DNA from: a phage
Reading direction: 5' to 3' (one strand)
DNA: 64,000 bases
NCBI GenBank assembly: GCA_022520065.1
Contig: GCA_022520065.1_3942.1
Each line of letters opens with the position of its first letter. Position 1 is the first letter of the stretch. Under the pieces are notes generated by a model, which saw only the letters and a program-made list of their open reading frames with translations, did not search any database and was not told where the DNA came from. The translations under genes were made by a program, and so were the position numbers. Of the stretch, positions 7,878 through 64,000 are shown piece by piece.

Positions 7878-8134
7878 TTTGTAAACCCTTTCTTAATGAA
7901 CCAGTTGATAACATTTTTCACAGCTTTATTGCTATGGTAGATTAAGTGTGGTGCTGGTTGGTATGAACCATAAGCCCAGAAAGCAATAATTTCACTACAC
8001 CCTGTACACCTTGTACTCTCTTCAGCAATATGACCGTTGACTATTTCACTTACCTCACCTTGTAAGTCTGTACACCCACAATGTGGACAACGGATAGGTG
8101 CTCCATCAGACTCATAGCAGTGTTCAATTTTCAT
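7874..8134 (-). CDS. small zinc-ribbon protein
   Basis: CPHCGC ... CTGC cysteine pairs. Confidence 0.45.
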   Translation of the reverse strand: MKIEHCYESDGAPIRCPHCGCTDLQGEVSEIVNGHIAEESTRCTGCSEIIAFWAYGSYQPAPHLIYHSNKAVKNVINWFIKKGFTK

Positions 8135-58809: not shown

Positions 58810-59274
58810 TTACTTTGGGTATACACTGTCAAGATAAATGTCAGCTTCCATTCTACGTCTGTTTTTCAGTCCGTTTGAAGTGACCTTCTTACCTTTGACT
58901 GTAACCTTGTTCCACCACTGCATAGCTTCTGCACAACCTACCTTATTACCAGCATTGTGGCGCTTGATAAATGTGGAATCCTGCATAGCCGTGATACCAA
59001 TGTTGTATGTTTCACTTACAAGTGCGTCAAACTCATTCTGAGAAGTTGGAACCTTGATGGCTTTGTTCACTGCTGCAACGAACCTTTCAACATCTGCGAG
59101 AAGATACTGTTCAGCTTGTTCAGCGGTAATCTTCATACCCATCTTAACAGGTTTACCAGCAATACTGATAGTCCCATACCCAATTGTGGGGATTCCAGCA
59201 GAATCTTCGTAAGCCTCCAGCTTCAGACCTTCAAAGAACTTAATAGCCTCTAAACCTTTTCTTGAGAGTTGCAT
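58810..59274 (-). CDS. endolysin, GH24 phage lysozyme
   Basis: N-terminal FEGLKLEAYEDSAGIPTIGYG lysozyme signature. Confidence 0.8.
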   Translation of the reverse strand: MQLSRKGLEAIKFFEGLKLEAYEDSAGIPTIGYGTISIAGKPVKMGMKITAEQAEQYLLADVERFVAAVNKAIKVPTSQNEFDALVSETYNIGITAMQDSTFIKRHNAGNKVGCAEAMQWWNKVTVKGKKVTSNGLKNRRRMEADIYLDSVYPK

Positions 59275-60407
59275 TATGCCTCCCCTGCTGGGTTAACTGT
59301 AACTGTTGCCGCATTAGATGTTACAGAGCCACCTGCGCCAGTAACTACACAGGTGTAGCTTCCTGAATCAGCAGTGGTTGCACCTTCTTTGGTGTAAGTT
59401 GCAGTAGTTGCGTCTGGGATGTTTTCCTCACCCTTCTTCCACTGATATCCTGTTGCACCTGTTGCCACAACATTCAGCGTTAAGGTCTCACCTTCAGTGA
59501 TTTCTTGATTGGTTGGCTGTTGAGTGATTACAGGAAGTGCATTCACAGTTACTACAGCAGCATTAGATTCCACTGCACCACCAGCACCTGTTACAACGCA
59601 AGTGTATGAACCTGCATCTGCTGGCAGAGCACCAGACTTGCTATAGGTGGCATCTGTAGCCGAAGGAATGTCAGAGCCATCTTTCTTCCACTGATAACCT
59701 GTTGCACCTGTTGCAGTCACTTCCAAGTTGATATTTCCACCCTCATTGATGGTCTGGCTAGAAGGTTGTTGTGTAATCACAGGCAGTGCGTTAACAGTAA
59801 CTGTTGCCGCATCTGAGGTAACGCTTGTTCCAGCCTCTCCAGATACAACACAAGTGTATGAACCAGCATCAGAAGGTACTACAGACTGTTTTGTGTAGGT
59901 TGCAGATGTGGCGCTAGTGATATCCTCACCATCTTTTTTCCATTGATATCCAGTGGCATTAGTTGCAATAACGCTTAGGTTAAGTGTACCACCTTCATTT
60001 ACTGTTTGATTGGTTGGTTGCTGAGTGATTGATGGTGGCTTGATAGCGTCCTTCAACTTAGCATTCAACATTGAGAATGGTTTAACTCTTGCCAGCCATT
60101 CACAATAAACTGTATCAACGTCTTTACCATTGATAATTGCATATTGTAAGTCCATGAAGAAGTCAGAAGTTCTCATTTGAGCACCAACGCTGTAAAGCAA
60201 CTCATCACTAAATGGAACTTTGTAGTCTGGTTTGTAGTCAAACTTCTCAACTTCTGCAATATCAGCTTCAGGCCAATACGAACTATAGGTGAGTGGTAAA
60301 ATAGCCTCTTGATATGTTCTAAAGTCATATCTCTTACCAGCCTTTACATTTGCAATGAAGCCCTTCACAAACTCTTTGAAGTCTGGGTAAGTCTTTGCTT
60401 TAATCAT
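59274..60407 (-). CDS. protein with three tandem Ig-like domains
   Basis: Three ~90-aa repeats (QQPxxQxxNEGxxxxLxVxATGATGYQWKK...GSYTCVV); N-terminal domain paralogous to 60404..60775. Confidence 0.5.
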   Translation of the reverse strand: MIKAKTYPDFKEFVKGFIANVKAGKRYDFRTYQEAILPLTYSSYWPEADIAEVEKFDYKPDYKVPFSDELLYSVGAQMRTSDFFMDLQYAIINGKDVDTVYCEWLARVKPFSMLNAKLKDAIKPPSITQQPTNQTVNEGGTLNLSVIATNATGYQWKKDGEDITSATSATYTKQSVVPSDAGSYTCVVSGEAGTSVTSDAATVTVNALPVITQQPSSQTINEGGNINLEVTATGATGYQWKKDGSDIPSATDATYSKSGALPADAGSYTCVVTGAGGAVESNAAVVTVNALPVITQQPTNQEITEGETLTLNVVATGATGYQWKKGEENIPDATTATYTKEGATTADSGSYTCVVTGAGGSVTSNAATVTVNPAGEA

Positions 60408-61882: not shown

Positions 61883-61900
61883 TTGACAAAGTACTTGACA
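61883..61900 (+). promoter_or_regulatory. conserved tandem TTGACAA element in divergent control region
   Basis: GTTGACAAaGTACTTGACAAGGTG, nearly identical to 15666 element. Confidence 0.35.
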
Positions 61901-62032: not shown

Positions 62033-62404
62033 ATGAAAAACAGAACAAACAAAGGCCAGTTTAAAAAAGGCCAGTCTGGAAACCCATCTGGAAGACCAAA
62101 AGGCTCTCGTAACAAAAGTTCACTCGTAAAAGCTCAACTGACCATTGATAATTCTGCTGAGTTCGCTGCAAAGCTGTTTGAGGCGATTGTTACAAGGGAC
62201 GCGGCTAAGCTTGCAGAGTTCGGGTTAAACACAGATGACGTAACCATCAAGAGTATGATTGAGGTCGGTAAAACTATCTTTACTCACTCAGCAGGTGAGA
62301 TGAAAGCACTTGCAGCAGACACTAAGAAGACTCCTGAGAATGGTGGTCAACAACAGACAGATAACAAACCAACGTTCTCTGCTGTAGCGACTCTTAAAAA
62401 ATAA
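62033..62404 (+). CDS. hypothetical protein with GNPSGRPKG motif
   Basis: 123-aa ORF; basic Gly/Pro N-terminus. Confidence 0.45.
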   Translation: MKNRTNKGQFKKGQSGNPSGRPKGSRNKSSLVKAQLTIDNSAEFAAKLFEAIVTRDAAKLAEFGLNTDDVTIKSMIEVGKTIFTHSAGEMKALAADTKKTPENGGQQQTDNKPTFSAVATLKK

Positions 62405-62485
62405 TTTTAAAAGGTGTTGACAGACTCTACAAAGTTGCTCTAAAGTCTGTCACATCAAACAACAAATGAGAGAAGAGAGTAAAAT

Positions 62486-63901
62486 ATGAGCGAATTATTT
62501 AAACATGCGCACCTTCATGCAGGTCGAACTGAAAATGGTGCTGTAAACCATACTTCATCAATGTCTGCTCTTGTGGACTTTTACAAAGCTGCTGGTTCTA
62601 GCCGTAGCAATGTAGAAATCTTACCAGACTTGTTCTACAAAGCTTTGCATGAGGATGTTGATGTTGCAGTTCGTATTTTACTGCATATGCGAGATGTACG
62701 AGAAGGTATGGGTGAGCGTAAAGCTTTCCGAACTGTTTTACTTCAAGCGATTGAAGATAAAGTTCTAGAGTCTACACAGGTTCTTCGCATTATGGATAAG
62801 ATTGCAGAGCTTGGTCGCTTTGATGATTTCAAAATCTTCGTGGGTACTTGTTTCGAGACAGATGCCTTCAAGCATTTAGAAGCAGCATTACTAGACCCTG
62901 CAACAGCAGGTTTGGCAGCTAAGTGGTTACCACGAGTCAAACCACGTCATAAGCAGTTTGTAAAACGTTTCTGCAAGTTTGCCAACTTGAGTGAGAAAGA
63001 GTACCGCACACTGTTGTCTGCACTATCTGATACAGTTGAGCAAAAAATCTCTGCTAATGAGTTTGGTAAGATTGACTACAGTAAGATTCCTTCACTTGCT
63101 GCTGCACGTTACCAAAAACTGTTTAACCGTAAAGATGGAGAGCGTTACAAAGCTTACATCGAGTCCTTATCAAAAGGTGAGACTAAGATTAACGCTGGTG
63201 CTGTTTACCCATACGATGTGATTAAATCTGTCAAGTATGGTAATGCAGATGTTGCTAATGAGCAGTGGAAAGCACTACCAAACTGGATGGCAGAAGGTGA
63301 AAACATCTTGTGTATGTCTGATGTATCAAGTTCAATGTCTTGGGTGAATTTTGGCTCCATTACTGCTCTGGATATTGGTGTATCACTTGCCTTGTATGTA
63401 GCAGAACGCAATACAGGTTGCTTTAAGAATGAGTTAATGGTTTATTCAACAAACCCTCACTTCATCGAACTGAGTGGTGATTTACGAAACCGTCATCGTC
63501 AGGTGATGCGACACGTTGAATATGGCTCAACTAACTTACAAGCAGCTTTTGACCGTATTCTTGAGACAGGTAAAAGAAACAACTTGACTCAGAAAGATAT
63601 GCCAAGTAAGCTTATCATCTTCTCCGATATGGAGTTCAATCAGGTTGATGGAGCTAACGGTCGTACAAACTTTGAAGCAATTCAGAGTAAGTACAAAAAA
63701 GCTGGATATGAGATGCCACAACTGGTATTCTGGTACTTAGCAAACCGTAATGGCACTTGCGAAGTATCTGTTAAGGATAACGGTGTAGCAATGGTATCTG
63801 GTTTCTCTCCAGCCACTTTAAAAGCTTTGCTTGGTGGTGAGAAGTTTGACCCAATCAGCGTAATGCTCAAAGCAGTAATGATTGACCGTTATATCTGGTA
63901 A
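62486..63901 (+). CDS. vWA-domain protein, possibly TROVE/Ro60-like
   Basis: MIDAS-like DVSSSMS in C-terminal half; helical N-terminal half; family assignment tentative. Confidence 0.4.
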   Translation: MSELFKHAHLHAGRTENGAVNHTSSMSALVDFYKAAGSSRSNVEILPDLFYKALHEDVDVAVRILLHMRDVREGMGERKAFRTVLLQAIEDKVLESTQVLRIMDKIAELGRFDDFKIFVGTCFETDAFKHLEAALLDPATAGLAAKWLPRVKPRHKQFVKRFCKFANLSEKEYRTLLSALSDTVEQKISANEFGKIDYSKIPSLAAARYQKLFNRKDGERYKAYIESLSKGETKINAGAVYPYDVIKSVKYGNADVANEQWKALPNWMAEGENILCMSDVSSSMSWVNFGSITALDIGVSLALYVAERNTGCFKNELMVYSTNPHFIELSGDLRNRHRQVMRHVEYGSTNLQAAFDRILETGKRNNLTQKDMPSKLIIFSDMEFNQVDGANGRTNFEAIQSKYKKAGYEMPQLVFWYLANRNGTCEVSVKDNGVAMVSGFSPATLKALLGGEKFDPISVMLKAVMIDRYIW

Positions 63902-63919
63902 AAAGTTTTAAAAAGGGTA

Positions 63920-63948
63920 TTGACAATGTGTTTGATACCCTTTAATAT
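63920..63948 (+). promoter_or_regulatory. sigma70-like promoter TTGACA-N17-TAATAT inside a hairpin
   Basis: Hexamers 63920-63925 and 63943-63948; inverted repeat AAAGGGTAT/ATACCCTTT spans the -35 and spacer. Confidence 0.45.
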
Positions 63949-64000
63949 GTTCTACATAGAAACGAAATGAGAGCTTTTCTAAGATACTGAAAAATATTTT

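Follow-up and report, generated by a model that had tools for sequence, protein, structure and literature searches.

A Ro60-fold phage protein of the DUF2828/DUF7788 branch and candidate Y-RNA-like partner RNAs encoded at its loci

We analyzed a 64,000-nucleotide (nt) stretch of phage DNA (contig GCA_022520065.1_3942.1, hereafter the window) and examined a gene near its 3′ end, at positions 62486–63901 on the + strand with the stop codon included, that starts with ATG and encodes a protein of 471 amino acids (aa). According to its predicted structure, this protein is a Ro60-fold protein of a divergent DUF2828/DUF7788 branch, and in related genomes its gene stands ahead of a transfer RNA (tRNA) array that holds structured, Y-RNA-like elements in its spacers. 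A covarying RNA motif shared by these elements adjoins genes of the same family in very different phages, and we consider it probable that the gene encodes a phage Ro60-type RNA-binding protein heading a non-coding operon whose Y-RNA-like RNAs are its partners. The core of an earlier interpretation made from the letters of the window (the sequence-only reading) is correct and was already known through gp130 of phage Bas63 and through mycobacteriophage annotations; what appears to be new are the candidate partner RNAs and their distribution, as no published description was found and no Rfam 15 family reaches threshold for them.

A Ro60-like fold with an intact MIDAS

Between positions 61900 and 64000 the window shares 99.5% identity with Felixounavirus LF82P9 and over 97% with scores of Escherichia coli and Salmonella phages, a level of nucleotide identity that assigns its source to a Felix O1-type phage (Felixounavirus). 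The feature had been taken to span 62486–63948; the open reading frame (ORF) of 471 aa within that span stands and ends at 63901, and the remainder to 63948 is a promoter-like site. The protein exceeds the Pfam cut-offs for DUF2828 in its N-terminal half (PF11443, 102.3 bits versus 29) and for DUF7788 in its C-terminal half (PF25043, 148.9 bits versus 27.1), and its match to PHROG 850 (“RNA-binding protein”) covers residues 1–471 (E 4e-183), which together place it in the DUF2828 plus DUF7788, PHROG 850 family. At least 2,560 relatives, counted as clusters at 90% identity, emerged from a word-indexed search, and 710 records of cultured phages encode a family member. DUF2828 proteins are also present in plants and in giant viruses of protists. 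Alignment of 55 relatives reaching down to 40% identity reveals 52 invariant positions. These include the basic N-terminal-domain residues R40, R69, R72, R78, R111 and K146 and, in 55 of 55 relatives, residues D279, S281, S283, T349 and D381 of the metal-ion-dependent adhesion site (MIDAS) of a vWA domain. The DVSSSMS sequence that had been called MIDAS-like occupies residues 279–285 in the C-terminal half, beginning at nt 63320, and proves to be part of a complete DxSxS...T...D set, with the DxSxS portion (DVSSS, residues 279–283) encoded at 63320–63334 on the + strand.

Structure prediction places the protein with Ro60. In a confident AlphaFold model (mean pLDDT 89.6, pTM 0.88), residues 28–263 are nearly all helix and form a helical-repeat domain, as had been proposed for the N-terminal half, and residues 274–448 form an alpha/beta domain. 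The top 11 Foldseek matches of this model are all Ro60/TROVE chains (E 4e-8 to 8e-7, TM 0.52–0.64), beyond which E rises by four orders of magnitude to vWA-only matches (E ~2e-3, TM 0.2), with midasin and integrins among the vWA fold matches. The helical ring of the model aligns with Ro60 across ~400 residues at an identity of ~12–15%. The tentative assignment to a Ro60/TROVE-like architecture thus withstood the fold comparison: the helical-repeat ring followed by a vWA domain and the complete MIDAS are both present, and the Pfam TROVE model itself is silent. Weak matches of the 55 relatives point the same way, to VWA_2 in 31 and to vWA_Ro60 (PF25045) in 13 (best E 4.7e-4), and TROVE is absent among the 25 listed of the 28 families that these relatives match at E ≤ 10. 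Comparison with viral structure models shows the family reaching giant viruses and merging gradually with proteins that bear the names TROVE or Ro-like, and mycobacteriophage homologs annotated as “Ro-like RNA binding protein” share 31–34% identity over 98–100% of the length (E 1e-58 to 1e-75).

The closest published precedent is gp130 of Bas63 (Escherichia phage JohannRWettstein; bas63_0130), which is 97% identical to the protein over all 471 aa and from which the protein itself differs in nothing of substance. The gene order is identical, with a DUF5681 gene upstream and tRNA-Pro downstream. A PhageMaP preprint describes gp130 as structurally similar to Ro60 and encoded directly upstream of tRNA genes, and reports that its deletion cripples Bas63 on a host expressing the defense system Ppl, that gp130 supplied from a plasmid or from the T7 genome restores T7 on Ppl, and that the Bas63 tRNAs are mostly dispensable (PMC11482910). 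We assume from orthology that this counter-activity against Ppl would carry over to the orthologue studied here.

Y-RNA-like elements in the downstream tRNA array

We reconstructed the region past the window end by aligning that end with four Felix-group genomes and with their tRNA tables. The sequence-only reading had proposed that a non-coding RNA could begin at about 63955 and had seen no ORF begin ahead of the window's end; with the exception of a trivial 5-codon ATG ORF at 63967 this is accurate, and the next genes in the relatives are tRNAs and not a protein-coding gene. In these genomes tRNA-Pro starts 166 nt past the stop codon as the first of 22–26 same-strand tRNAs, and alignment predicts its start near 64067 in window numbering. 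Positions 63955–64000 (+) would be the start of the leader of this non-coding operon, which continues past the window. Scans of the whole window at Rfam gathering thresholds and with ARAGORN found nothing; the RNAs lie past its end.

The tRNA-like and Y-RNA-like folds that the sequence-only reading had suggested looking for past 63950 are found in the arrays of the relatives. Their longer spacers contain a repeated element, CAGAAGACCnnnTACAGCAA ... GGTCTGG, with 4 occurrences against 0.06 expected. Three copies share a fold made of an outer 4-bp stem, an AGA/G internal loop and an inner 7-bp stem, and both stems differ in compensatory fashion among these three short copies. The fourth copy closes ~100 nt later, and inside it lie a T arm, a 7-bp hairpin and a D arm, arranged in the permuted order that characterizes YrlA. 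Felix-group phages encode three short copies (~65–80 nt) and one YrlA-like long copy (~135 nt), all within the tRNA array, and all four share a closing module composed of a 7-bp stem, the sequence N-U-W-CAGCAA and a G that follows the 3′ strand. In window numbering the first short Y-like RNA is predicted near 64234–64311, and the YrlA-like RNA is predicted ~975–1110 nt past the stop codon, as judged from covariance matches in contigs L001, L003 and L083 and from the fold of phage ASO1B (L002, 8970–9120). In Bas63 (MZ501086) the four candidates occupy 82066–82143, 82233–82301, 82688–82766 and 82781–82906. The authors of the Bas63 study guessed that some annotated tRNAs are Y RNAs (PMC11482910), whereas the candidates identified here are un-annotated spacers of the array.

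A covarying CAGCAA motif is linked to DUF2828 genes across phages

We retrieved 80 viral-contig loci encoding relatives of the protein and analyzed 76 non-redundant ones (1.27 Mb). The motif that recurs in these loci begins with the 5′ strand of a 7-bp stem and N-U-W-CAGCAA, continues through a loop rich in A and ends with the other stem strand and a G. A descriptor specifying a 7-bp stem, 3 nt, CAGCAA, 15–90 nt, the complementary strand and G gave 69 matches on the strand of the gene, 1 on the opposite strand and 1.8 in shuffled sequence. A covariance model, R1, built from 53 copies gave 103 matches at E ≤ 1 over the same loci, all on the gene strand, and none within the window. Matches to R1 occur in 58 of 76 loci, with the nearest at most 100 nt from the gene in 29 and at most 500 nt in 47, and 61 of 64 strong matches lie outside ORFs of at least 80 aa. 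Across the alignment 99% of stem cells are paired and all 7 pairs covary, against 28–46% for controls with slid partners. The phage consensus has A (83%) and G (99%) at stem positions 1 and 2, U (93%) and W ahead of C (100%), A (92%), G (100%), C (100%), A and A, and a 3′ end of C (99%), U (83%) and G (100%).

The motif follows the gene rather than the tRNAs. Transfer RNA or tmRNA genes occur within 10 kb in half of the loci, more commonly downstream than upstream, and of the 38 loci that lack a tRNA over this distance, 26 have a motif match; the motif is thus linked to the gene and not to tRNAs. The tRNA arrays of phages T4 and T5 contain no motif match on the tRNA strand. As an outside control we searched 1.04 Mb of viral contigs selected only by the 5′-motif fragment AAAGGN5TTACAGCAAA, for which the canonical spacing is N4. 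The matches to this fragment are mostly due to chance, 112 of 120 having neither the stem nor a DUF2828 gene, and of the 4 strong R1 matches in this set at least 3 sit 26–40 nt from a DUF2828 gene. The association of motif and gene spans phages of Proteobacteria, Firmicutes, Actinobacteria and Campylobacter: in Listeria phage LP-083-2 the gene is immediately preceded by three tandem copies and followed 1.3 kb downstream by an RtcB gene, Campylobacter phage NCTC12673 has a single copy between tRNAs and the gene, and mycobacteriophage Krypton555 has three tandem copies directly after its Ro-like gene gp56, the middle one enclosing a YrlA-like core. Krypton555 gp56 belongs to the same family as the protein studied here and is likewise accompanied by CAGCAA elements; it differs in host phylum and in having no large tRNA array at its locus.

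Long forms resemble YrlA

In Krypton555, in loci L076, L078 and L079 and in others, the closing module surrounds a tRNA-like core and retains the stem, N-U-W-CAGCAA, an A-rich run, the 3′ strand and G. Minimum-free-energy folds of ASO1B (L002, 8970–9120), L078 (258–400) and Krypton555 (L084, 5518–5660) reveal one layout, a closing stem followed by a T arm, a hairpin and a D arm, and in many long forms a T-loop motif precedes a D-loop motif. A T arm ahead of a D arm within a long closing stem is the layout of YrlA, and the Rfam YrlA model (RF02553) aligns with long forms at DUF2828 loci outside the Felix group at 36.7, 38.3 and 28.7 bits, below its threshold of 69. A GNCGAAN0-1G match in the Felix array was considered as a YrlA motif and set aside, as this sole intergenic match belongs to a T arm. 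The long forms behave as divergent YrlA-like RNAs, and the short forms relate to them much as YrlB relates to YrlA in Salmonella.

These features parallel the Ro60/Rsr systems of Salmonella and Deinococcus with their YrlA and YrlB RNAs (PMC4201824). Both have a helical-repeat ring joined to a vWA domain with a MIDAS; both have partner-like RNAs on the same strand within a few kb, in a long permuted tRNA-like form and in short forms lacking the tRNA-like domain; and both have an RtcB neighbor, here in some phages. The phage proteins differ in their ~12–15% identity to Ro60 with no Pfam TROVE match, and the phage element N-U-W-CAGCAA lies 3′ of the 7-bp stem, whereas YrlA has GNCGAAN0-1G near its 5′ end (Chen et al. 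2014, PMC4201824). A second comparison is phiRo60 of Thermus phage phiLo, which binds two Y-like RNAs and host polynucleotide phosphorylase (PNPase) and damps the nuclease (PMC12135203). It differs in being annotated as TROVE and in having RNAs, Yrl1 and Yrl2, that carry a CGAA motif and lie upstream of the gene (PMC12135203; PDB 9l5y, 9kop). Around the phage genes analyzed here, the covarying motif and the YrlA-like long forms are candidates for a Y RNA encoded nearby on the same strand; they adjoin the gene family, and all of them score below the Rfam gathering score.

Promoter-like sites around the gene

A consensus scan finds TTGACA-N18-TAAAGT upstream of the gene at 62417–62446 (+, 10/12), overlapping the repeat TGACAGACT...AGTCTGTCA, and the ASO1B record annotates a promoter at the equivalent place. 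Past the stop codon, TTGACA-N17-TAATAT at 63920–63948 (+, 10/12) opens a tandem pair of sites in front of the array of tRNAs and Y-like RNAs; the second, TTGACA...TAAAGT, lies ~80 nt further in the relatives, just beyond the window end (L001 8112–8140). The inverted repeat AAAGGGTAT(N14)ATACCCTTT at 63912–63943 (+) encloses the −35 box of the first site; the scan marks it as terminator-like, and it lacks the U-tract that terminators typically have. The earlier call of a strong promoter inside a hairpin is borne out as to the 10/12 match and the enclosing repeat; the promoter match alone is no better than expected by chance. Bas63 has TAGTAT as the −10 box at the site matching 63920–63948, and conservation in the Felix O1 group carries little information because the genomes are 97–99% identical there. 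Each of the three promoter-like sites near the gene has an inverted repeat across the −35 to −10 region, with arm sequences that differ each time: TGACAGACT/AGTCTGTCA at 62417–62453 and AAAGGGTAT/ATACCCTTT at 63912–63943 of the window, and AACCACT/AGTGGTT at 8112–8146 of L001.

A resemblance to Dictyostelium Class I RNAs

Only one Rfam family, the Dictyostelium Class I RNAs (RF01414), can be aligned with the short phage copies from end to end. Its full-length alignments on the gene strand score 12.8–24.3 bits, with 16–24 bits for the copies scanned in small search spaces, and its threshold is 41.5; for three other copies it was not reported by a scan of 37 kb at E ≤ 1. Dismissal of the 24-bit match as chance was dropped, as the match recurs at every short copy examined. 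Class I RNAs have a short covarying stem that joins their ends, an 11-nt motif beside its 5′ strand, an AAG start and a CUGU end (PMC7919456), and the phage consensus has each of these features. The RF01414 consensus reads GaUcuC-CUUACAGCAAUuaAA...AAAAAcC...GagAuC-UG, and the two groups share a variable short terminal stem with compensatory changes, the conserved (C)CUUACAGCAA motif directly 3′ of the 5′ strand, the AAG start and CUG(U) end, an A-rich stretch ahead of the 3′ strand and a length of ~55–65 nt (Kjellin et al. 2021, PMC7919456). They differ in that the phage RNAs fall below the RF01414 threshold and the Dictyostelium RNAs are transcribed from eukaryotic nuclear genes that have a DUSE promoter.

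Class I RNAs are abundant and developmentally regulated, and according to their authors they occur in dictyostelids alone. The direct binder known for them is the RRM protein CIBP, and a pull-down with DdR-21, one of the Class I RNAs, recovered CIBP, two enzymes of nucleotide metabolism and the unknown-function protein DDB_G0281243. The supplements of the Class I preprint (10.1101/2020.04.05.026054) do not mention DUF2828. Among the discarded non-dictyostelid candidates in its supplementary file 7, the Arabidopsis sequence ath_can_1 (covariance model score 40) carries the full signature, with a GUUUUC stem strand, AUUACAGCAA, GAAAAC and UG; it is the sole such sequence in the list and too little to build on. 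We hold it possible, with considerable doubt, that the CAGCAA RNAs are the Y-RNA equivalents of the entire DUF2828 branch and that Class I RNAs belong to the same RNA family. The tie to Dictyostelium is a lead and not a result, and it is the reading most worth testing.

Other features of the window and of related loci

The DUF5681 gene directly upstream (62033–62404) was considered as a member of a general module and rejected, as it is kept only in the Felix group and at one related locus. Further upstream, a tail protein of 377 aa (59274–60407, − strand) has three tandem repeats of ~90 aa that are immunoglobulin-like in appearance, and the number of repeats differs among relatives, the equivalent gene measuring 882 nt in TP1, 1134 nt in ASO1B and 1383 nt in Bas63. 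Within the ASO1B array, the deposited annotation includes a 129-nt “tRNA-Thr-GGT” (L002 8930–9058) that is probably a mis-call, overlapping short copy 3 at its end and the YrlA-like RNA in its 5′ part and T arm. Right after that RNA (L002 9110–9260) lies a perfect 20-bp inverted repeat, TAATTATCTTTGTAGATAAG ... CTTATCTACAAAGATAATTA, with arms ~130 nt apart.

Several DUF2828 loci encode further RNAs or proteins of interest. Neighbors of an RNA-repair type include a Band-7-like membrane protein in Krypton555 (gp50, L084 1472–2404) and an HD phosphohydrolase with an RtcB ligase in LP-083-2 (L085 6079–8026). Six loci have a phage tmRNA gene 4.4–7.4 kb from the DUF2828 gene on the same strand, downstream in five (L031 15822–16176, L032 16119–16479, L036 16694–17067, L046 13168–13521 and L063 18753–19121) and upstream in one (L024 1317–1767); CAGCAA elements share this stretch, 1.3–1.6 kb further downstream and beside tRNA-Met genes. 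LP-083-2 has a near-threshold match to ROOL RNA over the full model length (L085 2429–2980, 87.4 versus 99.1 bits), located among tRNAs ~1 kb upstream of the DUF2828 gene. Transfer RNAs that read stop codons (anticodon UUA, or CUA called as tRNA-Pyl) occur near the DUF2828 gene in some loci (L078 3231–3307, L079 4374–4450, L031 20038–20110 and L081 14760–14833) and hint at phages with recoded stop codons. A sub-threshold DUF805b motif match (L049 2982–3017, 30.1 versus 35.6 bits, E 9e-5) lies ~100 nt past a CAGCAA element downstream of a DUF2828 gene. The T4 and T5 arrays also hold annotated stable small RNAs, some of them tRNA-like and without a match to the CAGCAA model: rnaC and rnaD in T4 (L208 2909–3172), and RNAI, RNAIII, RNA1, RNA2H, RNAIV and RNA2 in T5 (L209 4285–4645, 5809–5980 and 6839–7084).

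Discussion

Canonical Ro60 binds a Y RNA on its outer surface and the ends of misfolded RNAs in its central cavity. We propose that helical repeats in the protein form a ring, which a vWA/MIDAS domain closes, and that its gene heads a same-strand non-coding operon that would be read from one or two sigma-70-type promoters at and just past the window end and that would comprise 22–26 tRNAs, three short stem-loop RNAs and one long RNA with a tRNA-like core. RNase P and 3′-processing enzymes would free the Y-like RNAs along with the tRNAs, and the protein would bind their closing module. As in the Rsr–YrlA–PNPase and phiLo phiRo60 systems, the resulting ribonucleoprotein may bind structured or damaged RNA ends, hold a host exoribonuclease, or both, and so may help the phage keep its RNAs working during infection.

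Several observations weigh against this proposal. Pfam TROVE (PF05731) has no match to the 471-aa protein at E ≤ 1, and neither a PDB sequence search with the protein nor a profile search with the 55 sequences found Ro60, so the relationship is visible by fold comparison only. RNA binding by DUF2828-type proteins is itself something we infer, by analogy with Ro60. Promoter-likeness in the region is not above chance, with 5 sites against 6.2 expected from shuffles. The motif is not matched in 18 of 76 loci, and the seeds of the model were picked for perfect stems, which makes the pair counts partly circular; the strand asymmetry, the shuffles and the outside-set controls are unaffected by that choice and constitute independent evidence. 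The Felix long form is unmatched by the Rfam YrlA model even at E ≤ 10 and has CAGCAA where YrlA has GNCGAAN0-1G. Finally, gp130 alone from a plasmid rescued T7 on Ppl (PMC11482910), and because it suffices in T7 the partner RNAs are not needed for the Ppl phenotype. RNA binding may still underlie that phenotype, with host RNAs substituting for the phage partners, or the activity against Ppl may be separate, perhaps exerted via the MIDAS face.

We judge unlikely a reading in which the protein is an anti-defense factor that acts by protein–protein contact, its MIDAS could clamp an acidic residue of Ppl or of a host factor, and the Ro60-like fold reflects ancestry with the RNAs unrelated. Restoration of plaquing on Ppl by gp130 alone, whether from a plasmid or from a T7 insertion (PMC11482910), fits this account, as do the invariance of all five MIDAS residues and the presence among the vWA matches of midasin and integrins, whose MIDAS domains bind protein ligands. 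Set against it, canonical Ro60 likewise has a MIDAS, the helical ring aligns with Ro60 over ~400 residues, many basic N-terminal residues are invariant, and structured RNA co-localizes with the gene across phages of all four host groups.

We find it quite unlikely that the CAGCAA stem-loops are cis elements of transcripts instead of free RNAs, whether as signals for processing or stability or as an operator on the DUF2828 mRNA that serves autoregulation. Many copies do lie 27–50 nt past the stop codon or 35–250 nt ahead of the start, as would suit an element of an untranslated region. Yet the same motif also occurs 5–9 kb from the gene between tRNAs, often 5–12 nt after one and 6–16 nt before the next, it is found on either side of the gene and frequently in tandem arrays of 2–4, and the same module closes YrlA-like RNAs with tRNA-like cores; an RNA of like build is, moreover, an abundant free RNA in Dictyostelium (PMC7919456). 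That the adjacency is incidental, with the promoter driving tRNAs that supply codons or evade tRNA-cleaving defenses and the protein unrelated to them, seems to us very improbable: a tRNA within 1 kb downstream of the gene in only 16 of 72 loci, none within 10 kb in 38 of 76, and the dispensability of most Bas63 tRNAs speak for it, but all 345 of 345 tRNA and tmRNA genes lie on the strand of the gene, and the feature common across loci is the RNA motif, which in the Felix group sits inside the array.

A large and mostly unannotated protein family gains concrete candidate RNA partners that recur across very different phages. They offer a handle on the working of phage Ro60-like proteins, on the nature of the “spacers” in phage tRNA arrays and on the possible encounter between gp130 and Ppl. 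Were the more doubtful extension to Dictyostelium true, Class I RNAs would be partners of a DUF2828-type Ro60-like protein, for which DDB_G0281243 is one candidate, and the module would be common to phages, giant viruses and eukaryotes. Should the resemblance reflect common descent or a common protein partner, the ~20-year-old question of the Class I RNAs would become directly testable.

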